Part shown: positions 936-27,347 of the stretch, piece after piece
How the letters are laid out: each line of letters opens with the position of its first letter
How positions within the stretch are numbered: the first letter of the stretch is position 1
Assembly: GCF_004376175.1 (NCBI RefSeq)
Contig: NZ_SNUY01000059.1
Coordinates: 1-28,166, forward strand
Direction: 5' to 3'
Length of the DNA stretch: 28,166 bases
Origin: Halalkalibacterium halodurans
GTDB lineage: Bacteria > Bacillota > Bacilli > Bacillales > Bacillaceae_D
Notes under the pieces: generated by a model
Seen by the model: only the letters and a program-made list of their open reading frames with translations
Database searches by the model: none
What the model was told of the DNA's origin: nothing
Position numbers and translations under genes: made by a program

Positions 936-1371
936 AAGAAAAAATTTATATATAAGTGAAAAGACCATCAGCTATTTAGAAAAAGTACAAAATAACATTT
1001 TAGAACAGACTGGTGAAAAGATAAGCATAGGAAAGGTACTCGATAAAATATGCAAAGAGCATGAGGTAGCAACAGATAAAAAAATGAATGATTTAGCGGT
1101 TATGATTGCGGAACATCTTGCAGAGAGCTTAAGAAAAGACCTCGTAAGAATACGATTAGGAACTAATAGTTCTGATCGAAATACACAAGTACTATTAGAA
1201 ATGTTTAATCATCTGTTTTTGGTGAATGCACAAAAAGATCCTACTCTATATAAAGTATTAGCAACTACAGACAAGATTAAGTCTCCTATGTTGGAAAGTG
1301 CAGAAATCCATGTAAAAAATAAAATTGAAACTTTTCGACAAATAAAGTTAGATCGAAAAGGTGACGAATGA
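916..1371 (+). CDS. second small relaxosome auxiliary-like protein (possible RHH, Aux2-like)
   Basis: 151-aa ORF overlapping both the preceding and the following genes. The N-terminal KRKNLYISEKTISYLEKVQ resembles an RHH strand-helix. Functional assignment rests on gene order only. Confidence 0.45.
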   Translation: MIFMNYKRKNLYISEKTISYLEKVQNNILEQTGEKISIGKVLDKICKEHEVATDKKMNDLAVMIAEHLAESLRKDLVRIRLGTNSSDRNTQVLLEMFNHLFLVNAQKDPTLYKVLATTDKIKSPMLESAEIHVKNKIETFRQIKLDRKGDE

Positions 1372-2993
1372 TGGTAGGTGTCGTACTTAAAACGAAATTT
1401 ATTTATCAGTCTGATAAAGTCTTTACTGATTATATTGACTATGTGGACAGGGAGGAAGCTAAACGTAACTTAGCATATGAAAAGTATTCATCTTATAGTC
1501 AAGAAAACATTAAAAAATTTAGACAAAAACAGAAAGAACTCATAGATGAAGCAAAAGAAAGGATTGCAGAAACAACAGCAAGAATTGAAACAGAAAAAAG
1601 TAACATAAATAAACTTGAAGATCGTCTTAAGAATTATAATAAGGCTTTTGATTATTTAAATAATATAGAATCTGTTCCCAAACTTTTTACAAAGGAAGCC
1701 GATTTCCTTACATGGAAGGAAAAAAAGGATTTAAAGAATTTGTTTGAAGAGTATACCGAAAATGAGGATATTAATTACTCAGAAGAGGAAAAAGTACTTG
1801 AACGGTTTAGTCAACACCTAGAAAAGTTTATAGATAAACGTAGTGAAAGCATTAGAACCATGATCCACAAAAAAGAAAAATTTCTTTCTAATTTAGAGAA
1901 CAGTATTAATTTTGCAGAACGAAAAATCAAAAAAAGTGAATCTGTACTTAGCTATGATCATTACTCTGATTATATGGACAATCCAAACAAAACGAGCGCT
2001 TTATTTACAAAAAACTCAGATCAACTAGATACAAAAGATAAAAAAGCAATTAAAAGAATATATAAAGAAGCCCAAAAAAACGGAAGTGTTATGTGGCAAG
2101 ACGTAATTAGTTTTGATAACAGGTGGCTAGAAAAACATGGCATATACGATCCAGAAACAAACACAGTAGATGAAAAAAAAATAATGTTAGCTACCCGTTC
2201 AGCAATGAACGAAATGTTAAAAAGGGAAGGGTTACAGGATAGCGCAATTTGGTCAGGGGCAATCCATTACAATACGGATAACATACATGTTCATATTGCA
2301 ACTGTAGAACCTATACCGACAAGGAAGAGAGGAAAACGGAAACCGAAAACATTGAGGTATATGAAATCTAAAGTAGTTAATCAAATAATGGATCGTTCTG
2401 TTGAACAAAAGAAAATTAACACTCTTATTAGAGATAACATTGTTAAAAAGAAAAAAAGCAAGCCTATGAAGTTTAACAGAGAAGCGAAAAAGTTATTTGA
2501 ACACATAAAGGAAAATCTCCCATCAGATAAAAGGCAATGGCAATATGGGTATAATTCGTTAGACAAGATTCGCCCGACTATTGATCAATTAAGTAAGTTA
2601 TACATCATGAAATATCATAGGAAGGAATACAACGAACTTTTAAATAGACTAGATGAAGAAGTAAAAGTAATGAAAGAAGCCTATGGGGAGGGGAATTATG
2701 AGAAACTTAAACAAAACAAAATAGAAGAGCTTTATAAACGTTTAGGGAATGCAACTTTAAAAGAAATTAAAGAGCTTTCTCAACAAGAGCAAGCAAGGTT
2801 AAAAATTTCAAGAAAGGGGAATAAAGAGCCTTCCATTAGGCGAGATAATATTAAACATAAGATTTTGGTTAATAGAGCCTTATTTAAAGCTCAAAATATG
2901 TTTAAACGAGAATATACCAGTTGGAAAAACCAACAACACTTTGAAAGGTTGCAAGCCTTACAAGCGGAGAGAGATAGAGAATATGAACGGTAG
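1368..2993 (+). CDS. conjugative relaxase, MobL / MOB_L-like
   Basis: 541 aa. Tyr-rich N-terminus (FTDYIDYVDREEA) and histidine-triad motif HYNTDNIHVHIATVEP, with a long coiled-coil insertion. Start overlaps the upstream stop (ATGA). Confidence 0.7.
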   Translation: MMVGVVLKTKFIYQSDKVFTDYIDYVDREEAKRNLAYEKYSSYSQENIKKFRQKQKELIDEAKERIAETTARIETEKSNINKLEDRLKNYNKAFDYLNNIESVPKLFTKEADFLTWKEKKDLKNLFEEYTENEDINYSEEEKVLERFSQHLEKFIDKRSESIRTMIHKKEKFLSNLENSINFAERKIKKSESVLSYDHYSDYMDNPNKTSALFTKNSDQLDTKDKKAIKRIYKEAQKNGSVMWQDVISFDNRWLEKHGIYDPETNTVDEKKIMLATRSAMNEMLKREGLQDSAIWSGAIHYNTDNIHVHIATVEPIPTRKRGKRKPKTLRYMKSKVVNQIMDRSVEQKKINTLIRDNIVKKKKSKPMKFNREAKKLFEHIKENLPSDKRQWQYGYNSLDKIRPTIDQLSKLYIMKYHRKEYNELLNRLDEEVKVMKEAYGEGNYEKLKQNKIEELYKRLGNATLKEIKELSQQEQARLKISRKGNKEPSIRRDNIKHKILVNRALFKAQNMFKREYTSWKNQQHFERLQALQAERDREYER

Positions 2994-3019
2994 TTTCATA
3001 AAGTATAGGAGGAATAAAA

Positions 3020-5047
3020 GTGCAGTTATTTGTTTGTGAAAAGCCATCACAGGCTGAAATGTTTGCAAATGCGTTATGTGATAGTGTGAAGTCTAAGAAA
3101 GGGTATTATCAAGGAGATCAAGATAAAATATTTACTTATGCTTTTGGTCATTTAGTAAAATTGATTCCTTTGGAGAAAATTAACGAAAACTTTGGATGGA
3201 AGGGAGATATAGAAGCCCTTCCTCTTTTTGTTAAGGATATTCCTCTAGAACCAATTGAGGACAAAAAAGAACAACTAGGGGTGGTTATAAACTTTATAAA
3301 GAAAGCTAAAACAATCTACATTGCAACTGACGCAGGACGTGAAGGAGAACATATATTTAGAAAGATTTATAAGCTTGCAAAAGTTGAAAAGCCTTTAAAA
3401 AGACTGTGGGTACAAAACAATACGAATCAAGGGATTTTAAAAGCTTACGAACAAGCAAAAGATGGTTCTGAATATGAAGGTCTTGCACAAGCAGGACAAT
3501 TAAGAGAGGAAGCTGATTTATTGATTGGTGTGAATGGAACTCAGCTATTGACACGATTAAGCGGTAGTAACAAATTGCTAAGTCTTGGTCGAGTACAGAC
3601 CCCTACTTTAGCTATGATTGTAAATCGAGACTTAGCAATAGAAAGTTTTCAAAAAGAAAAGCATTACACCATTGTAGCACCTGTCTTAGGCTCTGAGATC
3701 GAATTTGAGTTAGTTATGGAGAAAGACATACGTTTAAAAAAGGATGAAGTTATTGCTATAAAAGATTCCTTAAAACAAAGGGGAGAAATTCAATTCTCGG
3801 AAAAAGAAGTACAGGAAAAGCCTAAGAACTTGTTTGATTTAACATCCTTACAAATGTACATGAACGATAAGTCTAGTTGGTCAGCTCAAAAAACACTGGA
3901 CGTTTTGCAAAGCCTTTATTTAAAGCGATTGGTTACTTACCCTCGTACCAGTTCTCAATATCTCGCAAGTTCAGACGATTTACCAGTTATTCTAGAGCAA
4001 CATAAAGATAATGAATTTGTAGAAGAAATCCTTAACAATGGATATGAAATCGAAAAATCCTTTATCGATGGAACCAAGGTGACAGATCATGAAGCTATTA
4101 TTATTACTACAGAAAAAGCGAAAAATTTAAGCTCAGACGAGAAGAAGTTATATAATGTTATTTTCGAACGTTTTATTTCAAGTTATTATCCTCAAGCAAG
4201 TTATAAAGTCACTGTTGCTCAGTTCAATGATGGTGATTATACATTTCAAGCTAAGGAAAAGGCTCTTGTTGATCTGGGGTGGAGAAAACTTTTTAATGGT
4301 CAGGTAAAAGAGCCTAAATTAAGGATGATTCAACCGGAGGGCATAAGTAATTATGAAATCAGAGAAAAGGAAACTTCTCCACCTAAAAGGTATACAGAGA
4401 AAACATTACTAAATGACATGAAAAATGCAGGGAAATTTTTGAAAGAAGAAAAGGATAAAAATATCTTAAAGAATGTTGAAGGAATCGGAACGCCTGCGAC
4501 AAGATCCAGTATCATTGAACTATTGTATAAGCGAGGTTATATAAAAAGTAAAGGGAAACAAATTGTATCAACTGAACTAGGTAGAGAAATTGTTAAAATG
4601 ATGCCTAATACTTTTAGTTTATACAGCCCTAAAATGACAGCTTTCTTTGAGTCTTTACTGCTTGGGGTTGAAAAAGGATCAATTGAAAAAGAGGTCTTCT
4701 ATCAAAACTTAGAAGCCCTAATCCAAACTATAGGAAAAGAAATAAAGGTGAATGTAAAGTCTGTAAATATCGATGAAAAGAAAGCTGTTGCAAAATGTCC
4801 GTCTTGCAGTAAAGAAGTGTTAGAAAATACAAAGGCATTCTCGTGTAGCGGATATAAACAAGGATGTAACATTACTTTGTGGAAAAACAGTTTGGTGCGC
4901 TTTGGAAAGAAAAACATAACGGTAAAAGAAGCACAAAAACTTCTTGAGGGGAAAGTTATAAAAGTTAAACTAAAGGGGAAAAGCGGATCATATACGAAAG
5001 AAGTAAGATACAATCAGGCGAAAAATTGGGTTGAGTTTGTAAAATAG
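3020..5047 (+). CDS. topB: type IA DNA topoisomerase (topoisomerase III-like) with C-terminal zinc ribbon
   Basis: Toprim signatures (VCEKPSQ; TDAGREGEHIF), active-site Tyr motif VTYPRTSSQYL, and C-terminal CPSC...CSGYKQGC. AGGAGG RBS before the GTG start. Confidence 0.9.
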   Translation: MQLFVCEKPSQAEMFANALCDSVKSKKGYYQGDQDKIFTYAFGHLVKLIPLEKINENFGWKGDIEALPLFVKDIPLEPIEDKKEQLGVVINFIKKAKTIYIATDAGREGEHIFRKIYKLAKVEKPLKRLWVQNNTNQGILKAYEQAKDGSEYEGLAQAGQLREEADLLIGVNGTQLLTRLSGSNKLLSLGRVQTPTLAMIVNRDLAIESFQKEKHYTIVAPVLGSEIEFELVMEKDIRLKKDEVIAIKDSLKQRGEIQFSEKEVQEKPKNLFDLTSLQMYMNDKSSWSAQKTLDVLQSLYLKRLVTYPRTSSQYLASSDDLPVILEQHKDNEFVEEILNNGYEIEKSFIDGTKVTDHEAIIITTEKAKNLSSDEKKLYNVIFERFISSYYPQASYKVTVAQFNDGDYTFQAKEKALVDLGWRKLFNGQVKEPKLRMIQPEGISNYEIREKETSPPKRYTEKTLLNDMKNAGKFLKEEKDKNILKNVEGIGTPATRSSIIELLYKRGYIKSKGKQIVSTELGREIVKMMPNTFSLYSPKMTAFFESLLLGVEKGSIEKEVFYQNLEALIQTIGKEIKVNVKSVNIDEKKAVAKCPSCSKEVLENTKAFSCSGYKQGCNITLWKNSLVRFGKKNITVKEAQKLLEGKVIKVKLKGKSGSYTKEVRYNQAKNWVEFVK

Positions 5048-5060
5048 GAGGCAGATCGAA

Positions 5061-5366
5061 ATGGTACTAAAACGAAATAACTTTAATACAGAAGAAGAAT
5101 ACATGAAATACACAAGATCAGATGAATTTTTATCCCACTACTCCATTGAAAACAAGACAGTAAATGAAGTTTGTGAGGATATGTGTTTACCTATGGAATG
5201 GTCTGAATATGTACAAGAGTTATTACCTGTTCTTCTTAAACACAATCGTATCAGTGGCTATGATCTGATTGCTCATGTAGAAGACTTAGTGGAACAAAGA
5301 GAGGATGGTTTGAGTATTGAAGAGGTAAAAGAGCTTGAAGAAGCTAAGAATCGAGGGAGAAAATGA
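5061..5366 (+). CDS. hypothetical acidic protein (possible partner or antitoxin of the next gene)
   Basis: 101-aa ORF with an AGGAGG RBS and a 4-nt ATGA overlap with the downstream MazF-fold gene. No recognisable domain. Confidence 0.5.
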   Translation: MVLKRNNFNTEEEYMKYTRSDEFLSHYSIENKTVNEVCEDMCLPMEWSEYVQELLPVLLKHNRISGYDLIAHVEDLVEQREDGLSIEEVKELEEAKNRGRK

Positions 5367-6226
5367 AGAACTATAGACAAAAATATAAATCAGGTGACTT
5401 GGTAATTGCTTATGAGTTCCCTTACAATAAATTATTAACAGATGAGTTTCAAAGTAGCAGGTCTAAACCTAGACCTGCTATTGTTTTGGGTGAAACAGGA
5501 AGGAACATAGCAGCTATCCCTGTTATGGGGGTTTACACTAAAGGAAGAATGACGGAAAAGGAAGGCTACAGCCTTTACAGACATGAAGTTAGAGTACCAA
5601 AAGGTCTGACAATGGGACAAAAAGAGCTTGAGGGAGTCATAAAAACGGATAGGGTAGTTGTCTTAGAAAGACATCAAATATCATCTGCTTTTGATGAATT
5701 TCCTTTACGAACAAAGATGGATATATTGTCTACGTATGAAGATATTAAAAACCTACCGTTTTATAAGAAAAGTTTAGATCAAGAAACCACTTATAATCAT
5801 GAAAGGATTATGCGAAACTTTAAAGAGAATGTTATTGCTGAACGATTAAATTTTCTAACTAATAAGGAAGGCGAGAACGTCTATGAGTTTAAGAAGTATG
5901 ATCAGTACCAAATAGATAAAATACAGCATATAGGAACTTTTAAGGATTTAAACATCTATGCTGTCAATTTACAAAGTACCGATGACAATTTTATTGTTAA
6001 TTTAGCGACAAATAAGCCTGTTAACAAGATCGTTTCCGACTGGTCAGGAACAAAAACAGCTAAAGAATGGTTAAGAGAGGACGCTAAATATCATGCACTT
6101 AACAAAAATATTGATCAAAATATTAGGAGAGATCCTTTCATCCATCCAGACAAGTTTATAAGATTAGACCAGTTATCAAAAAACGCAGGAAAAAATAATA
6201 TAAAAGAAAAGGGGCTGGAAAGATAA
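5363..6226 (+). CDS. MazF/PemK-fold N-terminal domain fused to about 170 aa of unknown C-terminal region
   Basis: By eye, GDLVIAYEFP...KPRPAIVLGE...IAAIPVMG...HEVRVP...EGVIKTDRVVVLERHQIS aligns with MazF/EndoA blocks (GDxxxxDF, RPxxVL, IVAPIT, xxV, SVxLxDQxRTxD). Confidence 0.5.
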   Translation: MKNYRQKYKSGDLVIAYEFPYNKLLTDEFQSSRSKPRPAIVLGETGRNIAAIPVMGVYTKGRMTEKEGYSLYRHEVRVPKGLTMGQKELEGVIKTDRVVVLERHQISSAFDEFPLRTKMDILSTYEDIKNLPFYKKSLDQETTYNHERIMRNFKENVIAERLNFLTNKEGENVYEFKKYDQYQIDKIQHIGTFKDLNIYAVNLQSTDDNFIVNLATNKPVNKIVSDWSGTKTAKEWLREDAKYHALNKNIDQNIRRDPFIHPDKFIRLDQLSKNAGKNNIKEKGLER

Positions 6227-6432
6227 TGATTTATACAATTGAAGAGGTTATGCAGTCTGATAAAGAGATTAGAACTAGTAAGGATATACCAATTGGAGCT
6301 ATTACACAAAAGGGAATCATTGATCTTGGAGAAAACATTTTAGACTATGATATTGATTTTTTTGTACCTATAGATGGTATTAATGGTATAGAGTTTGAGC
6401 CTTGGTATAGAAGGAAAAAAGGAGTTAGCTAA
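6226..6432 (+). CDS. hypothetical small protein
   Basis: 68-aa ORF whose start overlaps the upstream stop. It is the last gene before a terminator. Confidence 0.4.
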   Translation: MIYTIEEVMQSDKEIRTSKDIPIGAITQKGIIDLGENILDYDIDFFVPIDGINGIEFEPWYRRKKGVS

Positions 6433-6449
6433 AAGCTAGCTCTTTTTTT
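6422..6449 (+). terminator. rho-independent terminator
   Basis: GAGTTAGCT (6422-6430) pairs with AGCTAGCTC (6434-6442), 9 bp including one G-U, followed by T7. Confidence 0.7.
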
Positions 6450-6524
6450 ATTAATAGTAAATTTAGTATTAGTGGTAAAAGTAATTAAAATATTATTATT
6501 ACTAAAATATTAGGAGTAATCAAA

Positions 6525-8099
6525 ATGACTAAAAAAGTGAACTTAGCTGAATATAATAAAGAGTTAGAACAAAATTTAGAAGAGATTTTTAAAAATGATC
6601 AGTTTAAGCATTTACTTGATGTAATTGCAACAAGACATAATTACTCACTAGGTAATATGCTTAAGATTATACAGCAAAAACCAGACATTAAAATGATTCG
6701 TAGTTATGATAATTGGAAAAAGATAGGTAGACAAGTCAAGAAAGGCGAGACAGGATTAGAAATTTTAGTCCCTACTTTTAGAAATGAAGAAGTAACGAAG
6801 GTCGATGAAACAGGTTTTCCTTTATACGATGTAAAAGGGCAGCCAATTACAGAAAAAAAGAAAGTATTAAGAGGTTTTGTGACTGGAAAAGTATTTGATA
6901 TATCTCAAACGATAGGAAAAGAAGTGCCTAGTTTAAAACAGTTTATTCAAGAAGAAATGAAAAATGAGAATAACGTAAAGGAACTATATGATAGGTTCTT
7001 AGGGTATTTAAAAGAAAAAAGTAATGAGACAGATCTTCCGGTCAAAGAGGAAGAGCATACAGGAGAAAAGTATGGTGGATATTATGATAAGCGTAATCAT
7101 GAGATTATCATTAATACAGAAACCGCTAAAAGTCCAATGCAAAAATTTAGGGTTTTAATACATGAATACGCACATGCACAGTTACATCATATCGACAGCG
7201 AACTAAAAGATCTTGAGCGAGGACACAAGGAAGCTCAAGCAGATTCTTGCGCCTACATTGTGAACAAATATTTTGGTTTAGATACAGAAGAAAGTACAGT
7301 TGGATACATTGCTAGCTGGGCTAAAGACCTTAGAATAGCTAAAAAGGCAATATCTGAGGTACAAGAAGTAAGTATGACAATTATAGATGAGATCAACGAA
7401 GCTCAAATGGATAGAATTAATCAATTCTATAAAGAACATGATCCATCAAAAGTTAAAGAAGAACTAGAAAAGAAGGGAGTTAAGATTGAACCCGAAACAA
7501 AATTACAATTATTAGATATGAAGAACGGTTTTATTATTTCTGGACAAATAGAGAAAAGAGAAAGCGATGAGGTGGAGTATTTTCGTACAAATAAAAACCG
7601 AATTATTCCCCTTGATGAGTTGATTCAAGATTATGAAGTTATAAATAATCAATTGGAAATAGAAAAAATACTATCTGTTAAAGAAAATTTAAAGAACAGC
7701 AACTTTGAGATTATTGTAAATGGAAACAATAGTAGAAGTCTAAAACGAGACTTTAAAACGTTAAAAGAAGCTACCCAATATATCAATCGTATTGGAATAT
7801 CACAGTCATTGAATCAGGAAAGTATGAGGAAAAAAGAAAATAAAACGCTGAAACCTCAAGAAGAAAAGCTATTATCTAAACGCATTGGTAAGTATTTTGG
7901 CGACCATAATTTTTGTGCTGATTATGAAGGCAATATATCCATCGGATGGCATATTATGAAAAATCCTGATATTAAAACTAAACAAGAGTTCAAACGAGAT
8001 ATACAAAATTTAAAACAACATTTAGTAACCACAAAACGCCTATTAAATGCGATAAATCAAGCCGAAAAAAATTCGATGATGTGTGAGTTAGAAAGGTAA
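6525..8099 (+). CDS. ardC: ArdC-like protein: N-terminal ssDNA-binding (DUF1738-like) plus HExxH metalloprotease, with a long C-terminal extension
   Basis: NWKKIGRQVKKGETGLEILVP block typical of ArdC_N. LIHEYAHAQLHH zinc-protease motif with downstream HKEAQADS. 524 aa. Confidence 0.6.
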   Translation: MTKKVNLAEYNKELEQNLEEIFKNDQFKHLLDVIATRHNYSLGNMLKIIQQKPDIKMIRSYDNWKKIGRQVKKGETGLEILVPTFRNEEVTKVDETGFPLYDVKGQPITEKKKVLRGFVTGKVFDISQTIGKEVPSLKQFIQEEMKNENNVKELYDRFLGYLKEKSNETDLPVKEEEHTGEKYGGYYDKRNHEIIINTETAKSPMQKFRVLIHEYAHAQLHHIDSELKDLERGHKEAQADSCAYIVNKYFGLDTEESTVGYIASWAKDLRIAKKAISEVQEVSMTIIDEINEAQMDRINQFYKEHDPSKVKEELEKKGVKIEPETKLQLLDMKNGFIISGQIEKRESDEVEYFRTNKNRIIPLDELIQDYEVINNQLEIEKILSVKENLKNSNFEIIVNGNNSRSLKRDFKTLKEATQYINRIGISQSLNQESMRKKENKTLKPQEEKLLSKRIGKYFGDHNFCADYEGNISIGWHIMKNPDIKTKQEFKRDIQNLKQHLVTTKRLLNAINQAEKNSMMCELER

Positions 8100-10517: not shown

Positions 10518-10840
10518 ATAAGGGGCAACCTCTCACAAAGGCGAGAGAGCCCCGTATGGCGTCTGTCAACGGTAAGAGGACTGTAGGGAGCATTAAGGAG
10601 TTGATAGACCCACTTCACCAAGACCCTCTTGGTGTGTCAAACAAGCCATTAGCAAGTAAAGTATTAAAGATATTAAGATTATTACTTTTAGTAATTTTAC
10701 TATTTTTAATACTTGTACTAATAACTTTTTGTTTGTATAATTATTGTTGGGAGGAAGTTTGCTATAGAGGGTTTAGAATATGGTACGTGAAATTTTAAAG
10801 TGACTCATTTTCAATCAGGAAAAAGAGAAGGGGGATTTAA

Positions 10841-11510: not shown

Positions 11511-12130
11511 TGAATAGTTCGTAAAAATGATTTTGTAGAATTTATATTACTACAAACACTAAATCAAGTATTTTTACTACTTTTAGATTAATTACTATCT
11601 CATTGTGCTATGGGTAATAGGGGAAATTAAAAAATCTACGTACTTTTTGTGTACTTTTTAAGGACTTATTGTGACCTTACATAGTGTTAAACTTATAAGT
11701 GAGAAAGTCTTAAGAGGTATAACAAGAAAATAAGATTTTATAAAAAAGGTGGGGAATATATCCTCACCTTTTGCTTGATTAAAAAAAGAAGGGGAAAGAT
11801 AAAGGTTATGGAAGCTATGTATCTATTTTTTATGTTTGCTATTGCTTTGTTATCAGTTATCTTTTTAGACCTAGAACCAGCAACTGAACGACAAAGCGCA
11901 GTTTCGGTAAAAAATGGAAAAACTAATGTCAAGTTAATTTCAAAAGTTTATCGGGTAAGTCCGAGATAAGTCCAAAATCGGGCATAATCGATATAAATGT
12001 AAAGGCATTTTGTGGATTAAAATAAATCATTTGTAAATGTTTGATCAAATTGCATGAACGGGGCAGTAAAGTGCACTATTTTCTTTTGGTAAAGCTCTTC
12101 ACTTGCAGTCGGAAGGCCATAATCCCCTAA

Positions 12131-12169
12131 GGGGTATTTTTGCATATCCCCCCGAAAGGGTTTATTAAG
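12131..12169 (+). repeat. Tn3-family-type terminal inverted repeat (left)
   Basis: GGGGTATTTTTGCATATCCCCCCGAAAGGGTTTATTAAG has the GGGG...TAAG architecture of Tn3-family IRs. 21 of its first 22 nt match the reverse complement of 22679-22700. Confidence 0.7.
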
Positions 12170-13488: not shown

Positions 13489-13977
13489 TTACATCTGAAC
13501 ACACAGGCGGTTTATGATCTTATCGGCATCTTTGTTGATATCTTCAACGAATTTTCTGACGTTTATTTTGATTTCCTGTACCTTTGAATAAAAGACATTA
13601 TTGATAATGGTTCCCTTCATCCACTTCCAAAGTCCTTCTATAAGGTTCAAATCTGGACTATACGGCGGAAGGAATACCAGTTCAAGTCGACTTTGGTTTT
13701 CTTCTAGGAAAGGCTGAATAAGCTTGGCATGATGGATCCTTGCGTTATCAAGGACCATGACGATTTTTCCTGAAGGATACTTACTAAGGACTTTTTTCAG
13801 GAATTCAAGGAAGACTTCCGCGTCATAGTTTTCTGCTTCGACTACAAAGACTTCCCCTGTCTCGTAATTCAATGTTCCGAGAAGCTTGGCACCTTGATGC
13901 TTCCCGTAGGTAGGGATTAACCTTTGTTTTCCTCTCAGAAACCATGAACACTGAAGGGCCTGGTAATCCCTAATCAT
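13489..13977 (-). CDS. IS630-family transposase, C-terminal DDE part (orfB frame)
   Basis: VMVLDNARIHHAK and LPPYSPDLNLIEGLWKWMK motifs. The same frame is open upstream through LLNEEIDHILFEDES, which carries the first catalytic Asp. Confidence 0.8.
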   Translation of the reverse strand: MIRDYQALQCSWFLRGKQRLIPTYGKHQGAKLLGTLNYETGEVFVVEAENYDAEVFLEFLKKVLSKYPSGKIVMVLDNARIHHAKLIQPFLEENQSRLELVFLPPYSPDLNLIEGLWKWMKGTIINNVFYSKVQEIKINVRKFVEDINKDADKIINRLCVQM

Positions 13978-14002
13978 GGACTCGTCTTCAAACAGGATAT
14001 GG

Positions 14003-14536
14003 TCAATTTCTTCGTTTAAAAGTTTTTTTTAGATCTGGAAATGTCTCGTTTTTGAACGTTTCCTGTTTTGCCTTATCTGCCTTTTTAAGTGTATAGTTCG
14101 GTCTTGTATGGCTTAGGCCAAGGTCTTCAAGAAGGAGGGAAACGCCACGAAGCGTATAGGTTTGTCCCCATTCACGTTGGATGAAGTCTGATATGATGGC
14201 AAGCGTCCAGTTATAATGGTTTTCATATCCTACATCATGTGGTGTTTTATACGCTACCACCTGAACGAGTTCATGTTCCTGGCTCTCAGTTAACTTTCTA
14301 GGCGCACCCGTTGGTAGGCCTCTTTCAAGCCCAGCCAATCCGCCTTTCTTGTAGGCTTTAATATAAGAGGAAATCGTCTTAGTAGAACGAAGAACAATCT
14401 CAGAAATATCCTTATGCTTGAAACCTTTTAGATAGAGGTGGACAACCTGGTAACGTTCGAACATGCGCCTGTCATTGGTATCCTTCATGGCTTCCATGAC
14501 ACAAAGATTTTCCTGTTGAGTAGTCAAGGTACTCAT
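14003..14536 (-). CDS. IS630-family transposase, N-terminal HTH part (orfA frame)
   Basis: Winged-helix/HTH-like N-terminus. It ends 5 codons after an A8 run (T8 on the plus strand, 14023-14030), where a one-nucleotide frame change fuses it to orfB. Confidence 0.8.
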   Translation of the reverse strand: MSTLTTQQENLCVMEAMKDTNDRRMFERYQVVHLYLKGFKHKDISEIVLRSTKTISSYIKAYKKGGLAGLERGLPTGAPRKLTESQEHELVQVVAYKTPHDVGYENHYNWTLAIISDFIQREWGQTYTLRGVSLLLEDLGLSHTRPNYTLKKADKAKQETFKNETFPDLKKTFKRRN

Positions 14537-15568: not shown

Positions 15569-15940
15569 TTAACAGCAAGCTGAGTTATCACCAAAGAGTT
15601 CAGAATTTTTGATTTCACCAGCCAGACGTTTTATATAAAAATCAGGATTCTTTTTGAACTCTGTCATACAATGAGGACATCTGCAAAAATTAAATTTGAT
15701 ATCCTCATGCTGATATTCAATTGTGAACTCCGCTGGTTTTTCAGCTAAACAAGCGGGACAAACAACCCAGTCGGCTATTTCCGCAAGATATTTATCCGGA
15801 TCGGTAATAAAAATATCTACACATCCCTGGCAACAAAATTGATATTCTTCATCTTTATATTTGTATACGGCTGCCTTATCTTTTTCAATCCCTAATCGTA
15901 CTAGGGAACACCCACAGGCAGGACAGATTGAAGTTTTCAT
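15569..15940 (-). CDS. tandem TRASH/YHS-type Cys-rich metal-binding protein with C-terminal Cys-Cys
   Basis: Two copies of the CPxC...(Y/F)xFCxxxC...F..(D/N)P(D)xY pattern: ICPACG...YQFCCQGCVDIFITDPDKYL and VCPACL...FNFCRCPHCMTEFKKNPDFYI. Ends in ...NSACC. AGGAGG RBS. Confidence 0.6.
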   Translation of the reverse strand: MKTSICPACGCSLVRLGIEKDKAAVYKYKDEEYQFCCQGCVDIFITDPDKYLAEIADWVVCPACLAEKPAEFTIEYQHEDIKFNFCRCPHCMTEFKKNPDFYIKRLAGEIKNSELFGDNSACC

Positions 15941-21983: not shown

Positions 21984-22277
21984 ATGGGGATCTTTGATTT
22001 TTTTAAAAAGAATTCAATCGAAAATTCAATCATGAATCCAGGAATTGGAGAAAAGATGGTTGTTTTTAAAGATCTAGGCATGAGTTGAGGAAGTTGTAAA
22101 GCTTCGGTCGAAGCTGAGTTGAAAAAAGTATTGGGTGTTTCTCAATTTAATGTTAATGTGAAAAATCAATCAGCAACGGTCATTTTTGACCCATCGAAAA
22201 CAGATTTGAATTCCTTAAGAGAAGCTATTCACCGGGCTGGTTACACACCAAAGTATGAAATTGTCAAAGATGGATAA
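21984..22277 (+). pseudogene. HMA-domain (MerP/CopZ-like) gene with in-frame TGA replacing the first Cys of GMxCxxC: pseudogene or selenocysteine recoding
   Basis: GAGGTGA RBS with ATG at 21984. Reads ...KMVVFKDLGMS-TGA-GSCKASVEAELKKVLGVSQFNVNVKNQSATVIFDPSKTDLNSLREAIHRAGYTPKYEIVKDG. TGA at 22086-22088. Full HMA fold signature on both sides of the stop. Confidence 0.6.
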
Positions 22278-22662: not shown

Positions 22663-22700
22663 CGGCTGAACCCCTTCGAGGGGATATGTAAAAATACCCC
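22663..22700 (-). repeat. Tn3-family-type terminal inverted repeat (right copy, outer end at 22700)
   Basis: The reverse complement reads GGGGTATTTTTACATATCCCCTCGAAGGGGTTCAGCCGAG. The outer 26 nt or so match the IR at 12131; the inner part has diverged. Confidence 0.65.
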
Positions 22701-22794
22701 TAAGAAGAAATCGATTTAAAACACATTTTTCCTTTGGTTTTGGTAAATAGTAAAAAGGTAAGCAAAAAATATACATAAAGGAGATGTTTAAAAA

Positions 22795-23106
22795 GTGGAA
22801 CATGTTAAAGGAAATGCGATGGAATTATGTTTTGAGGCAGCAAGATTTTGTGAAAAAACGTACGCTGAGTCATTGGATACGCAAAACACGAAACTGATTC
22901 GATATTTAAGGGATTGTGCTGATTTGTGTTATACTTGCGGCAAATTTTGTGCAAGAGACAGTGAGTTTATGGGTGCTCTCGCCAAAGCTTGTGCGGATGT
23001 TTGTATCAAATGCGCTGATCTTTGTGAAAGTGTTGGTACTGATATTGCAAAACAATGTGCTGAAGCGTGTCGTCGTTGTGCGGAGGCTTGCCGACAAGCT
23101 TCATAA
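22795..23106 (+). CDS. DUF326 / Csp3-like four-helix-bundle Cys-rich metal-storage protein
   Basis: 14 Cys in repeated CxxxC/CxxC spacing on predicted helices (CADLCYTCGKFC, CADVCIKCADLC, CAEACRRCAEAC), as in YhjQ/Csp3-type proteins. AAGGAG RBS. The start could instead be the ATG at 22819. Confidence 0.65.
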   Translation: MEHVKGNAMELCFEAARFCEKTYAESLDTQNTKLIRYLRDCADLCYTCGKFCARDSEFMGALAKACADVCIKCADLCESVGTDIAKQCAEACRRCAEACRQAS

Positions 23107-23130
23107 TAATAGACGGATTAATATGTAATA

Positions 23131-23164
23131 AACAGGGGCTTCATTTCAAGCAAGCTCCTGTTTT
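23131..23164. terminator. bidirectional terminator between convergent Cys-rich genes
   Basis: AACAGGGGCTT (23131-23141) pairs with AAGCTCCTGTT (23152-23162), 11 bp including one G-U. T-runs on both strands. Confidence 0.65.
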
Positions 23165-23170
23165 CATTAT

Positions 23171-23368
23171 TTATTTAGCTCGACCTACTGATGGTTGAAC
23201 ACCTGTTCCACCACAGCATCCACACATCCTGCCGCAGTGGCAAGTGGGACAACATCCACTTCTCTGACAATGGTGGCAACCGGATCCACCGCAACAACAA
23301 CACTTTCCTGTACCACCACAGTAACGACACCCACCTGTACCACCGCAGCAATGACACATATGTTGCAT
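23171..23368 (-). CDS. 65-aa Cys/Gly-rich metallothionein-like peptide
   Basis: GGAGGTGA RBS 7 nt before the ATG at 23368. 18 Cys and 17 Gly of 65 residues, with repeats of CGGTG(G/K)C and runs CC/CCCC. This frame was chosen over three other open frames because it alone has an RBS plus ATG. Confidence 0.55.
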   Translation of the reverse strand: MQHMCHCCGGTGGCRYCGGTGKCCCCGGSGCHHCQRSGCCPTCHCGRMCGCCGGTGVQPSVGRAK

Positions 23369-23500
23369 GAACTCACCTCCATAGGGAATTAATTACTTAC
23401 TATTAATATGTCATGTTTATTAATCTTGCGGATTGTCCATACAAAAAGCCGATTTACTGGGCCTTTTTTGGGATCTTGGCAAGGTTCCCCATGCTATAGC

Positions 23501-23610
23501 TGTCACAAAAACGTTCGTTTCTGTTACGTGAGTGCACAACAATTTTCTAAGCTAGCAATCTCCCATAACTAACGTAACAAAAATATGTAACAAAATATTT
23601 TGTAACAATA
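23501..23610 (+). promoter_or_regulatory. candidate res (resolution) site upstream of tnpR
   Basis: A 28-bp imperfect palindrome, TGTCACAAAAACG-TT-CGTTTCTGTTACG (23501-23528). Further TGTAACA words follow, including the palindrome TGTAACAAAAT-ATTTTGTAACA (23586-23607). Confidence 0.5.
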
Positions 23611-23654
23611 TCATTATTTTAGTGTTTTTGATACAATTATATAGGAAGGAGAGG

Positions 23655-24209
23655 ATGTATGTGAAATTTGGTTATATGCGAGTTTCCACAATTGACCAAA
23701 ATTTAGATCGCCAAAAGAAACAGCTTGAAGATTTCGGATGTGAACAAATCTTTTTTGAAAAACTGACTGGTACTAAACGGGATCGCCCGGAGTTAAACCG
23801 CATGTTAGAGTTTCTTCGAAAAGAAGATACGGTTGTCGTAACGGATTTAACTCGTTTATCTCGTTCCACGAAAGATTTGATTGAGATTACAGAGCTAATT
23901 TCACAAAAGGGAGCGCATTTAAAAAGTTTAAAGGAGTCCTGGCTTGATACAACAACAGCACATGGAAAAATGTTGTTTACCATTTTTGCTGGAATTGCAC
24001 AGTTTGAGCGAGATCTTACCTCTGAACGAACAAAGGAAGGAATTTTAGCTGCAAGGAAGCGAGGAAAACTTCCTGGAAGACCAAAAGCTGACGAGGAAAA
24101 AATTAAGTATGCTTTATATCTAATGGAACAAGGGATGAGCCGGACTGATGCTGCTGAAAAGGCTGGTATCTCTCGTATGACTCTGTACCGTAAGATACAA
24201 AAAAAATAA
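23655..24209 (+). CDS. tnpR: serine recombinase / Tn3-family resolvase
   Basis: FGYMRVSTIDQNLDRQ catalytic-Ser motif, and the C-terminal HTH GMSRTDAAEKAGISRMTLYRKI. GGAAGGAGAGG RBS then ATG at 23655. Confidence 0.9.
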   Translation: MYVKFGYMRVSTIDQNLDRQKKQLEDFGCEQIFFEKLTGTKRDRPELNRMLEFLRKEDTVVVTDLTRLSRSTKDLIEITELISQKGAHLKSLKESWLDTTTAHGKMLFTIFAGIAQFERDLTSERTKEGILAARKRGKLPGRPKADEEKIKYALYLMEQGMSRTDAAEKAGISRMTLYRKIQKK

Positions 24210-24296
24210 TGCAACTAACTAGTAACCAATGGACCAAGAATTACTTGTTAATGCTTACAGCCTACTTAAATCGTGATTTCAATTGAGAGGTACAAA

Positions 24297-27248
24297 ATGA
24301 AAAAACAATGGGAATTAGATGAACTAATCGGTCATTTTACATTAATCGAACCTGAAAAAAAGTTGATTGAAAGTAAGTATGTTAATTCGCAACTGGGCTT
24401 TGCTGTAATAATGAAATTTTTTCAGCATGAAGCCAGATTTCCAGCCAAGTCTAGTGATATTCCAAAAGTAATAATCGATTTTATTGCAAAACAGCTTAAA
24501 GTACATCCGGCGATGTTTGATCTATATTCTTGGAGTTCTCGTACCTTGACGAATCATCGAAATGAAATCCGGAAATTATATGGTTTTCGTGAAGTTACAA
24601 TTCAAGATGAGAAAGAGATAACAACCTGGTTACAGGGGAAGGTGTTGGACTATGCTCATGAGTTTGAACCTTTAAAGGAGACTGTCTACTCTGAATTTAG
24701 ACGTAAAAAAATAGAGCCACTTACTGATGACCAGATTGAAAGAGTGGTTAAATCAGCAGTTTGGAATCAGGAACAGCAATTCTACAAAGAAACTTACCAA
24801 AAATTATCTCCTATTACCCTATCCCGTATGGATGCTCTTATGGAGTCATGGGTTGACATGGAAAACGATGAAACAGGCGAAGAGCAAGAAGATAAAAACA
24901 AAATTACTTTTCGCAAGATTACACTAGGTCCAGGACGAGTTAGCAAAGATACATTGCTGTTAGAAATTAATAAGTGGAAAACCTTAAATATGTTGGAACT
25001 CCCTGATAACCTATTTAGCTTAATTCCACCGAAAGTAATAAAAAAATATCGATTAAGAGCTATATCGGAAGAGAAAAGAGAGCTACGTAGGCATCAACCA
25101 GCCATACGCTATACTTTGCTAGCAGCACTTTTTTGGTCAAGAATCAAGGAGATAACGGATAGTTTAATCGAAATTTTAATCACTCTTATCCATAAGATTG
25201 ACGGCCGTGCGGAGAAAAAGGTTAAGAAAGACCTTATTCTAGAAGTAAAAAAAGTACATGGCAAAAATGACATTCTAATCTCATTATTAGAGGCTGCGCT
25301 CGAAAATCCAAATGGAATTGTAAAAGATATTTTATTTCCTTTAGTTGATATGGACACCCTAAAGAATATTATTAAAGAATTGAAATATAAGAACTCGGTT
25401 TATCAAGAAAAAGTATATTGGAAAATCCGAAGCTCCTATAGTAGTTCCTATCGGACAGCAGTAACAGAGTTACTGAAAACGTTAGATTTTCGTTCCAACA
25501 ATCAGAATCATCAGCCTCTTATTAAAGCCATTGAGTTGATTCGTAAATACTCGGGTACTACTCAAATTAATTATGCTCACGATGACGATGTTCCTACTGG
25601 AAGAGACATAATTCCTGCTAAATGGCGAGAACATGTCATAGAAAAAGATTCTAAAGGCAATGAGAAAATTAACCGAATGAATTATGAGATTTGTGTTCTT
25701 CATGCTCTTCGAGATAAGTTAAAGTGCCGAGAAATTTGGGTGGTCGTTGCAGATCGTTACCGAAATCCAGATGATCATCTCCCACCTGACTTTGTTAAAA
25801 ATCGAGAAGAACACTATGAAGCTCTTAAGTTACCAATTAATGTGGATGAAAAGATTACGGAGTTACAACAGGAAATGCATGATAAGCTATCGATGCTAGA
25901 TCAAGGAATACCTAGAAATAAAAAAGTATCCATTTCTGAATATAAAGGTGGATGGATTTCTCTAGCAAAGGACGATATACAGCCTGAACCCAAACGGTTA
26001 GCTTATCTCAAACAAGAGATTGCAAATCGATGGTCGATGACTAATCTTATTGATATTTTAAAAGAAACAGATTTACGGGTAGGGTTTTCGGATCTCTTTC
26101 AAACATTGGCTACTCATGAACGGTTAGATCGAAAAACCATTCAAAAACGCTTGCTGCTTTGTCTTTTCGGATTAGGAACAAACACAGGTCTAAAAAGGGT
26201 TGCTGCAGGGAATACAGATGTTACCTATAAAGATTTGTTATATATTAAGCGAAAATACATTTACAAAGATAACTTAAAGGCAGCCAATGAACATGTGGTC
26301 AATGCCATTTTAGCAGATCGTTTAGAAGAGGTCTGGGGGAAAGGAACAACCTCTTGTGCATCTGATTCCACAAGAGTTGTAGCATATGATCAAAATTTAA
26401 GAACTCAATGGTTCCCACGTTATCGAGGCCCTGGCGTCTCTGTTTACTGGCATGTAGAGGAAAAATCGATGTGTATACACTCACAAGTAAATACACCGAA
26501 TTCTTCTGAAGTAGCTGCTATGCTTCATGGATTATTAAATCACAACACCAATAAAGAAATTGAAAAAAACTTTGTTGATACACATGGACAAAGTGAAGTA
26601 GGTTTTGCATTTTGTCACTTGCTCGGTTTCAAATTAATGCCACGTCTCAAAAACATCAGTTCACAGAAACTGTATAAACCTAATACTGGAGTCAGTTTTC
26701 CTCATTTACAGCCTGTTCTCGCACAAAAAACAATTGATTGGGAATTGATTCGTCAACAGTTTGATGAAATGGTGAAATATGCAACTGCTTTACGATTAAG
26801 CGTAGCAGACACAGAATCTATCTTAAAGCAATTTTCGAAAAACACCTCTCATCCTACCTATAAAGCATTACAAGAATTAGGAAAAGCGTTGAGAACTATC
26901 TTTTTATGTGAATATCTGCATTTTGAAGAAATACGTAGAGAAATCCATGCTGGTTTAAATGTAGTGGAAAACTGGCATTCAGCCAGTGATTTCGTTTTTT
27001 ATGGAAAAGGTGGAGAGATCCAAAAGAATCAACCAGAAGAACAAGAAATTGCTATCCTTAGTCTCCACTTACTGCAAAATTGTTTAGTCTACATTAATAC
27101 TCTTAAAATTCAACATGTACTGAAAGAAAAAGAATGGATCAATCAGATGACAGCAGAAGACTATCGCGCTCTCACTCCTCTAATTTACAATCATATCAAT
27201 CCATATGGAGAATTTCGAATGGATCTAGATAAAAGACTTGCATTATAA
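24297..27248 (+). CDS. tnpA: Tn3-family DDE transposase
   Basis: About 983 aa. N-terminal DUF4158-like region ([12 protein letters not shown]...[16 protein letters not shown]). C-terminal Tn3-type catalytic region (ASDSTRV...; [27 protein letters not shown]; INPYGEF). GAGAGG RBS then ATG at 24297. Confidence 0.9.
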
Positions 27249-27309
27249 TAAACACTTTAAAACGAATGAACCGATTCATATAGAGTTGGTTCATTTACCA
27301 TTTTTTTCC

Positions 27310-27347
27310 GAAATTGCACTTCGTCGTTCAGTTGCTGGTTCTACCCC
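27310..27347 (-). repeat. candidate terminal IR of the tnpA-bearing transposon (outer end at 27347)
   Basis: The reverse complement begins GGGGTAGAACCAGCA..., resembling the recalled Tn4430-type IR start GGGGTACCGCCAGCA. It lies about 100 bp past the tnpA stop. No mate was found in the window, so this is tentative. Confidence 0.35.

Follow-up and report, generated by a model that had tools for sequence, protein, structure and literature searches.

Contig NZ_SNUY01000059.1 of Halalkalibacterium halodurans, all 28,166 nucleotides of which were analysed and are here called the window, carries within a Tn3-family transposon a small gene for an extremely Cys-rich peptide of 65 residues, MQHMCHCCGGTGGCRYCGGTGKCCCCGGSGCHHCQRSGCCPTCHCGRMCGCCGGTGVQPSVGRAK (translation of 23171..23368, minus strand), tail to tail with a gene for a protein of the Csp3 copper-storage type. 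Comparison of its variants in Bacillaceae leaves little room to doubt that this is a real gene under purifying selection, despite its product having been passed over in favour of another reading frame of the same tract. The peptide probably binds metals through its Cys residues, and the reading that we favour, with a probability of roughly 0.55, is that it would act as a cytosolic metallothionein-like buffer for soft metals. Small Cys-rich metal-binding proteins are a known class; what is new, judged from the searches described below, is the sequence family.

The coding frame

Five open reading frames (ORFs) of 59–65 residues overlap the tract, and an earlier note on this DNA, which had drawn attention to the 65-residue ORF with 18 Cys, 17 Gly and a strong ribosome-binding site (all as written in the sequence), was also right to caution that several frames stood open by chance. 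The frame annotated in public records is a different one, Val-rich and displaced by +1; the two are called here the Cys frame and the Val frame. How is one to tell which of the frames, if any, is decoded? Homologous tracts were reached with the Val-frame proteins as handles, by a profile-guided scan in which each species was represented by one genome, by blastn against plasmids, and by searching metagenomes for the DNA pattern of an invariant motif. These routes gave 12 distinct sequences from plasmids and genomes of Bacillaceae and from one metagenome contig: that of the window (identical at L003, L004 and L021), L002, C. firmus p1 (L001), Bacillus sp. NTK034 and C. pseudoceanisediminis (L011/L018), B. 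cereus ACH27 (L012), Priestia endophytica (L013), C. oceanisediminis pBO1 (L014), B. cereus 30102 (L015), Peribacillus asahii (L016), B. cereus S2-8 (L017), Bacillus sp. HNR-4 (L019) and the metagenome contig (L020). The conservation beyond this locus on which the earlier note had made its proposal depend is therefore present. Eleven of the 12 were aligned, and the ratio of non-synonymous to synonymous polymorphism (pN/pS) was summed over 55 pairs.

The Cys frame has a pN/pS of 0.27 and is the sole frame open in all variants, stops being found in some variants for every other frame. The Val frame has a ratio of 1.41 and stop codons in two variants, the sense +2 frame 0.86 and stops in most, and the three antisense frames 1.55, 0.32 and 1.18, the frame with 0.32 being one that has 4–7 stops per sequence and its third positions in common with those of the Cys frame. 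Among the 11 aligned variants the variable columns at codon positions 1, 2 and 3 of the Cys frame number 22, 21 and 49 of 59 (chi-square p = 4e-8), a third-position bias specific to that frame. The check on conservation of Cys positions that had been proposed gave 17 invariant Cys columns, in 12 of which TGT and TGC are both used, and of the eight invariant Gly columns six use at least two codons. Where a Cys has shifted between variants (42 versus 45, CCPTCHC versus CCPCCHS), the total has been kept at 18–20. As it is in the Cys frame alone that an ORF has been conserved and purifying selection is seen, the question of chance-open frames is resolved.

What can be said for the Val frame being the real product, or for the tract being a non-coding GC-rich repeat, is, besides the five overlapping ORFs, mainly what the databases hold. 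In most records it is the Val frame that PGAP, Prodigal and DFAST have called, and an exact look-up in a collection of 15 billion proteins found it as PKG26552.1, TES50335.1 and WP_276399894.1, each a 'hypothetical protein', with the source labels Cytobacillus horneckiae, Halalkalibacterium halodurans and 'Bacillaceae'. By the same look-up the Cys-frame peptide of the window is absent from that collection, and none of ten Cys-frame variants is present. This is a consequence of the gene callers preferring the Val frame. On the other side, in addition to the ratio and the stops given above, the Val frame is without a ribosome-binding site of its own because its ATG falls within the GGAGG box, Rfam has no RNA family at the peptide locus, and PGAP itself has called the Cys frame in two records, and two only, WP_157404521.1 and WP_154213879.1, again as 'hypothetical protein'. 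The Val-frame database entries are, on this comparative evidence, annotation artefacts. The calls are systematic across the TGY/GGN tract (L001 4645-4830(-), L014 6002-6205, L015 5987-6205, L016 6000-6203, L018 6037-6213), and further entries of the kind, which look spurious too, are WP_263600157.1, WP_019380894.1, BCD32551.1, WP_252291959.1 and WP_019381005.1.

The peptide and its gene

The window peptide (6.5 kDa, pI 8.6) has, besides its Cys and Gly, 5 His and 6 Lys/Arg and not a single Asp or Glu. Variants overall are of 5.9–7.2 kDa with 25–32% Cys, 5–7 Lys/Arg, 3–5 His, again no Asp/Glu, and 1–3 aromatic residues, of which Tyr16 is invariant. His32 and His33 are invariant also, and His44 is replaced in L016 only, by Tyr. 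In most variants the first Cys is at residue 4–5; those of the B. cereus group have an N-terminal extension of 9–11 residues ending ...TGG. The sequence shows neither a hydrophobic segment nor a signal peptide. CC, CCCC, CxC and CxxC motifs all occur, and mass and Cys content lie in the range of the operational Kagi/Binz definition of metallothioneins (<10 kDa, about 15–35% Cys).

The 'iterated CGGTGxC units' of the earlier description are there, though their identity as DnaJ-type CxxCxGxG motifs had been missed. Units of this type start at residues 5, 14, 23, 31, (39) and 49 with linkers of 0–2 residues, so that the peptide is a tandem array of five to six CxxCxGxG-like units into which further Cys are packed, the variable positions of the motif being filled by Cys or His (CHCC, CCCC, CHHC, CGCC). 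Four exact CxxCxGxG motifs and CHHCQRSG are found in the window peptide, and six CxxCxxxG units in most variants.

Is any of this recognisable as a known family? Seven variants gave no Pfam family match at E <= 10, PF02069, PF00684 and PF15777 included, and the variants gave none in NCBIfam even at E <= 10; HMMER composition filters could hide weak matches to either. The supposition that the peptide is not one of the described bacterial metallothioneins is borne out to the extent that no model of either database matches it, and its contiguous Cys-packed CxxCxGxG units have no described counterpart among them. With phmmer against 1.84 billion representative proteins nine weak matches (E 8e-6 to 8e-4) were obtained, eight to tandem CxxCxGxG proteins and the ninth to an unrelated repeat sequence, none being a member of the peptide's own family. 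One of them, P0019, aligned over peptide residues 4–59, and the five that were scanned have sub-threshold scores to DUF5351, DnaJ_CXXCXGXG, DUF7895 and Anti-TRAP. With hhalign no relationship to a supplied copy of the E. coli DnaJ Cys-rich domain was detected, at 5% probability. A PDB sequence search gave chance-level matches only, to plant proteinase inhibitors, and an AlphaFold model from the single sequence was uninformative (predicted local distance difference test score, pLDDT, 54.9). A word-indexed protein search yielded zero candidates; a literature search on the peptide motifs, on Bacillus metallothioneins and on small CxxCxGxG proteins yielded nothing relevant, none of the papers searched having those motifs.

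Homologues missed by annotation do exist, as had been anticipated. The tblastn search of plasmids suggested for the purpose returned nothing, probably through masking by the low-complexity filter, whereas blastn finds the tract in 14 Bacillaceae megaplasmids of the same set. Profile-guided scans of metagenome and viral contigs were likewise empty; scanning for the invariant CCCCxGxGCHHCQ as a DNA pattern gave the one metagenome contig (L020) and no viral contig.

Signals around the gene point to a transcription unit of its own. At 12 of 12 loci (T/G)TGGAGGT is followed by the Cys-frame ATG, 5–11 nucleotides past GGAGGT. At L001, L011–L017, L019 and L020 an AT-rich element, TAAATAT(A/G)TATACT, stands ~20–45 nucleotides before GGAGG, often with a TTGAC(A/T)-like hexamer just 13 nucleotides upstream of it, a spacing unusual for a sigma-A promoter; in the window and L002 the upstream region differs from that of the other variants (TTAATAAACATGACATATTAATA). 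Only 64 nucleotides separate the stop codons of the peptide and Csp3-type genes, and the hairpin between them (Table 1) has folding energies of -17.8 kcal/mol on the plus strand and -13.2 on the minus strand (z-scores -4.5 and -3.0). This hairpin is kept, directly 3' of the peptide stop, in L001, L002 and L013, and at L011 a different one is in the same place. The shared bidirectional terminator suggested earlier is thus plausible, though shown only in part, the hairpin having gone uncalled in a scan for terminators of strict consensus. Upstream element, Shine-Dalgarno sequence, ORF and hairpin together are best explained as an independent unit.

The convergent Csp3-type neighbour

The resemblance to Csp3 proteins that had been noticed in the neighbouring 14-Cys ORF is amply confirmed. 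Apart from the Pfam score in Table 1, phmmer matches the protein over its full length to BsCsp3 (5fig; E 8.7e-7); AlphaFold predicts helices at 2-26, 32-53, 57-79 and 83-102 (pLDDT 90.6), on which the Cys residues sit in CxxxC/CxxC arrays; and the top 20 Foldseek hits of the model are all Csp3/Ccsp structures (TM-scores 0.73-0.79). There is no Tat or Sec signal peptide, the N-terminus, MEHVKGNAMELC, leading directly into helix 1, and the Csp1-family model TIGR04401 scores 32.4 bits, far under its cut-off of 100. Sequence and predicted fold thus make it a four-helix bundle of the cytosolic copper-storage family. It is without a His-rich mouth motif, and in this and in having 14 Cys it resembles RkCsp3, a member of the non-classical Csp3 subgroup (PMC10155185). 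Its GTG start recurs in L001.

Convergent Csp3 genes follow the peptide gene at six of the 12 loci. Their products fall in three lineages with a mutual identity of 30–43%, and have 14 Cys in the window, 17 in L019 and 19, with an HDHAH stretch, in L016. Such divergence speaks for repeated or retained association and against a single hitch-hiking event. Csp3 genes free of the peptide were seen at L007 5001-5312 (Bacillus fonticola chromosome), L006, L009 and L010, and directly after those of L006, L007 and L009 come a convergent HMA P-type ATPase gene and one for a MerR-family regulator.

Genomic context across Bacillaceae

The other neighbours of the peptide gene are chiefly those of metal resistance and transposition. 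Tn3 tnpA or a resolvase gene is nearby at L002, L015 and L020; at L015 there are also CadC/CadA-like genes (ArsR/CadC with a P1B-ATPase), and at L014 YdhK, Tn3 tnpA, P450 and ArsR with a P1B-ATPase. Next to the gene are merR1-merA, Csp3 and ArsR with an ATPase (P1B) at L016, thioredoxin and a copper ATPase at L017, TatA, ZIP, a multicopper oxidase and ArsR with an ATPase (P1B, L018) at L011/L018, and Csp3, Nramp, ResA/CcdA and an ATPase at L019. From its neighbours, then, the peptide gene resides in mobile metal-resistance islands (mer, cad, cop).

At three loci (L014 6345-6575(+), L015 6344-6574(+) and L020 942-1172(-)) the side occupied elsewhere by Csp3 has a co-directional gene, ~150 nucleotides after that of the peptide, for a secreted protein of 76 residues, which has a signal peptide and, in its mature part, an abundance of Cys, Met and Glu (...MDCCQSKKECMEMCEEMNCQMDCCEM...). 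Neither Pfam nor NCBIfam has a match to this protein, which may be an extracytoplasmic metal binder. Some Cytobacillus megaplasmids have two paralogous copies of the peptide gene (NZ_CP107028.1, which is C. firmus M7 p1, NZ_CP015507.1 and NZ_CP085393.1). Those of NZ_CP107028.1 are at ~250.4 kb and ~167.5 kb; Csp3 accompanies one of them, and the other matches without a difference, over 271 nucleotides, the pBO1 copy, after which the secreted Cys/Met-rich gene comes in C. oceanisediminis.

The transposon and its contig

In the window the peptide and Csp3 genes had been taken for transposon passengers between the inverted repeat of a mer element and a res-tnpR-tnpA module, and location of the repeats (Table 1) establishes that placing. 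The transposon, 15.5 kb between outer 50-nucleotide Tn3-type repeats, is a nested one, within which the mer module has 36-nucleotide repeats of its own. Since homology of the Csp3-peptide pair to other loci begins at ~22701, at the inner repeat, the pair is a passenger beside res, tnpR and tnpA, distinct from the mer insertion. The tnpR gene is divergent from that of the peptide, and the res region is presumably within 23381-23654. The left outer repeat has a degenerate tip, GACC in place of GGGG.

Table 1. Positions, in the window, of the peptide gene and associated features
Feature	Position	Strand	Basis and remarks
Peptide coding sequence	23171..23368	minus	ORF listing; 65 residues, Cys/Gly/His-rich, 18 Cys
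Shine-Dalgarno sequence of peptide gene, GGAGGTGA	23373..23380	minus	GGAGG core 7 nucleotides before ATG
27-nucleotide tandem repeat	23286..23357	minus	Tandem Repeats Finder; 2.7 copies, 77% match; encodes the first three 9-residue CxxCxGxG units
Overlapping Val-rich +1 frame (MEVSSCNICVIAAVV...)	23185..23382	minus	public 'hypothetical protein' entries; not a gene
Hairpin with A-run and T-run flanks, between convergent stop codons	23130..23164		folding energy
Csp3-type (DUF326) protein gene, 103 residues, 14 Cys	22795..23106	plus	Pfam PF03860, 26.1 bits versus cut-off 20.4
Shine-Dalgarno sequence of Csp3-type gene, AAAGGAG	22777..22783	plus	read from sequence; GTG start 22795
Inner 36-nucleotide inverted repeats bounding mer module	12127-12162 / 22669-22704		
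Outer 50-nucleotide Tn3-type inverted repeats	11872-11921 / 27294-27343		right tip GGGGTAGAACC... at 27347
tnpR, resolvase gene	23655..24209	plus	Pfam Resolvase, E 9e-45; 184-residue call in identical L003, L021
tnpA, Tn3-family transposase gene	24273..27248	plus	DUF4158 and DDE_Tnp_Tn3 on identical L003 gene

The mer module comprises two merB genes, merR, an arsR-type regulator gene, merE, a thioredoxin-like gene, a membrane-protein gene, merA and a broken HMA gene. The last, at 21984-22277(+) between merA and the inner repeat, has a first ORF ending ...VVFKDLGMS and a second (22119-22277) whose match to the Pfam HMA profile is confined to positions 22-62; with the CxxC metal site lost through the frameshift it is probably a pseudogene. 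Also within the module are an IS630-type insertion (13489-14536, two ORFs) and, adjoining the merB genes, a gene for a protein with a metal-binding YHS domain, 15569-15940(-). Genes for a MobL relaxase, Topo III and an ArdC-like protein at 1368-8099 mark the window, on its gene content, as a mobilisable plasmid or a contig like an integrative and conjugative element, with which an RF01691 'Bacillus-plasmid RNA' at 10562-10617(+) fits (52.6 bits versus a gathering score of 31).

Proposed function and its alternatives

The features that suggest a metallothionein-like buffer are the Cys content, the conserved His, the basic residues together with the lack of acidic ones, the missing signal peptide, the promoter-like element and terminator of its own, and the metal context. 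As we envisage it, a cytosolic peptide of 6.5 kDa with 18–20 Cys and 2–3 conserved His would hold soft metal ions in clusters with its thiolates, likely candidates being Cu(I) and Zn(II)/Cd(II), with Hg(II) a possible one. The peptide would belong to a family built of five to six back-to-back DnaJ-type CxxCxGxG units, with the variable positions Cys-filled, whose gene is a passenger carried by Tn3-family transposons and within the metal-resistance islands of Bacillaceae megaplasmids. Where it stands tail to tail with Csp3, the peptide may be a quick, flexible acceptor or donor beside a slow, rigid store. There is precedent for such a product first being a non-annotated small Cys-rich ORF, namely MymT of M. 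tuberculosis, and PMC7558416 calls the way in which Csp3 proteins acquire their Cu(I) 'not completely known'. Functional partnership of peptide and Csp3 is a tentative proposal, for which we would give rather less than even odds. More speculative again, and in its entirety unlikely, is the larger picture of a new class of bacterial metallothionein that arose from a tandem-duplicated DnaJ-type zinc-knuckle, had its remaining positions back-filled with Cys, and serves as kinetically labile partner of Csp3, quick to capture metal and to pass it to, or draw it from, the four-helix store, in a two-tier cytosolic Cu(I)/Cd/Zn/Hg buffer spread among Bacillaceae by Tn3-family transposons.

Several things weigh against the buffer and its partnership with Csp3. 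The classical role of CxxCxGxG motifs is that of structural Zn(Cys)4 sites and not of storage clusters, and no homology to metallothionein families was detectable in Pfam or NCBIfam at E <= 10. Metal islands are gene-dense, and the neighbour counts are raw ones. No metal-sensor operator was recognised upstream of the peptide gene, and assignment of a sigma factor to the conserved upstream element was tried and given up, its -35/-10 spacing being atypical and fitting no justifiable consensus. Half of the loci (6/12) are without Csp3, and Bacillus fonticola and metagenome contigs have Csp3 genes 84–85% identical to that of the window but no peptide gene with them; the Csp3 gene is therefore mobile independently of the peptide, and the notion of a dedicated two-protein machine is weakened. 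Translation of the peptide, its metal binding, its choice of metal and any exchange with Csp3 are steps that we infer. The joint thiolate sink proposed at the outset accordingly fares unevenly: it fits the metal islands and the frequent convergence with Csp3, while the pairing extends to just half of the loci and the link to Hg is weak, since the mer module is set apart from the pair by an inverted repeat and mer genes are missing at most loci.

Might the peptide instead be a structural mini-protein? It would then have about three Zn(Cys)4 centres, in the manner of B. subtilis Anti-TRAP or the Cys-rich domain of DnaJ, and would work not as a metal sink but by binding to a partner protein, be it as regulator, holdase or thiol-oxidoreductase. 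Its four exact motifs and five to six CxxCxxxG units are what such a protein would show, as are the phmmer matches, eight of nine to tandem CxxCxGxG proteins, with P0019 spanning nearly the whole peptide and the sub-threshold scores touching just these families. Yet neither PF00684 nor PF15777 matches at E <= 10, and the hhalign comparison came out as reported above. Linkers of 0–2 residues, compared with roughly 6–20 in DnaJ, leave no room for DnaJ-like hairpin arms; 6–8 extra Cys, the conserved His32, His33 and His44 and the CCCC run are more than Zn(Cys)4 sites would call for; and the context is one of metal resistance in which no regulatory or chaperone partner recurs. On balance we regard a zinc-knuckle function as unlikely.

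Nearness to merA, which is separated from the pair by 1.1 kb in the window and in Peribacillus asahii (L016) stands 0.8 kb upstream of the peptide gene, brings to mind a mer accessory specific for mercury, a thiolate sponge for Hg(II) or a shuttle of it to MerA, and it is general chemistry that Cys-rich peptides bind Hg(II) avidly. The mer module of the window is a separate element, however, ending where the Csp3-peptide homology begins, and nine of the 12 variant loci have no mer gene in the DNA examined; a dedicated mercury role is improbable. Less probable still is a precursor of a ribosomally made peptide that is modified after translation (RiPP) or bacteriocin, a thioether, sactionine or radical-SAM product, which the earlier note had put forward as its alternative and to which the shortness and Cys-richness of the ORF, the extension in the B. 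cereus group and a stand-alone C39 peptidase 2.3 kb away at L014 alone might seem to point: with only 3–4 residues before the first Cys most variants have no leader, the 12 contexts have no recurring maturase, no radical-SAM, LanM/LanB or YcaO genes and none for export or immunity, and the sole recurrent neighbours are metal-handling genes. As for a Val-rich product or a non-coding repeat with chance-open frames, the comparative data on the variants already contradict it and we accord it next to no credence.

Significance

If the metallothionein-like buffer is real, the family would have roughly twice the thiolate density of known bacterial metallothioneins; the family is a mobile one, carried on Tn3-family elements and megaplasmids beside mer, cad and cop genes. 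To our knowledge no well-characterised metallothionein comes from Bacillota. According to a 2020 paper, biological function had by then been studied for only two bacterial metallothioneins, SmtA and MymT (PMC7558416, PMC7387436). The peptide is moreover a concrete candidate for what loads or unloads Csp3 in the cytosol, and its sequence could be of interest for metal bioremediation or biosensing. Whatever its function, the tract is a clean case of systematic frame mis-annotation, and similar Cys/Gly peptides may be hidden elsewhere.

Comparison with known systems

How does the peptide stand beside described thiolate-rich proteins? Like SmtA/BmtA (PF02069; Zn4Cys9His2, with a zinc-finger-like fold) and the Cu(I)-binding MymT, it is small (5–7 kDa), predicted to be cytosolic and Cys/His-rich, has CC, CxC and CxxC spacing with basic residues beside Cys, and has its gene near metal resistance. 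It differs from them in having no sequence similarity (no Pfam/NCBIfam match), about twice the Cys of SmtA (18–20 versus 9) and regular 8–10-residue repeats, and in being plasmid- or transposon-borne in Bacillaceae and known here from sequence. With the DnaJ Cys-rich domain (PF00684), Anti-TRAP (PF15777), DUF5351 and DUF7895 it has repeated CxxCxGxG in common, and the window peptide has the DnaJ-type count of four, but neither the PF00684 profile nor the spacing of the two-Zn hairpin, its units being contiguous with Cys or His at the x positions.

Csp3 proteins (BsCsp3/YhjQ, MtCsp3, SlCsp3, RkCsp3) are likewise thiolate-rich and cytosolic, and are co-located with the peptide; the peptide, being Gly-rich and without helix propensity, would not be a four-helix bundle. 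Mammalian metallothionein has 20 Cys in 61 residues and forms M7Cys20 or Cu12 clusters, and it is to the eukaryotic metallothioneins that the peptide is akin in length, in its ~30% Cys, in the lack of acidic residues near the clusters and arguably in having few aromatics, whereas it has no homology to them and has conserved His, one invariant Tyr and no obvious split into two domains.

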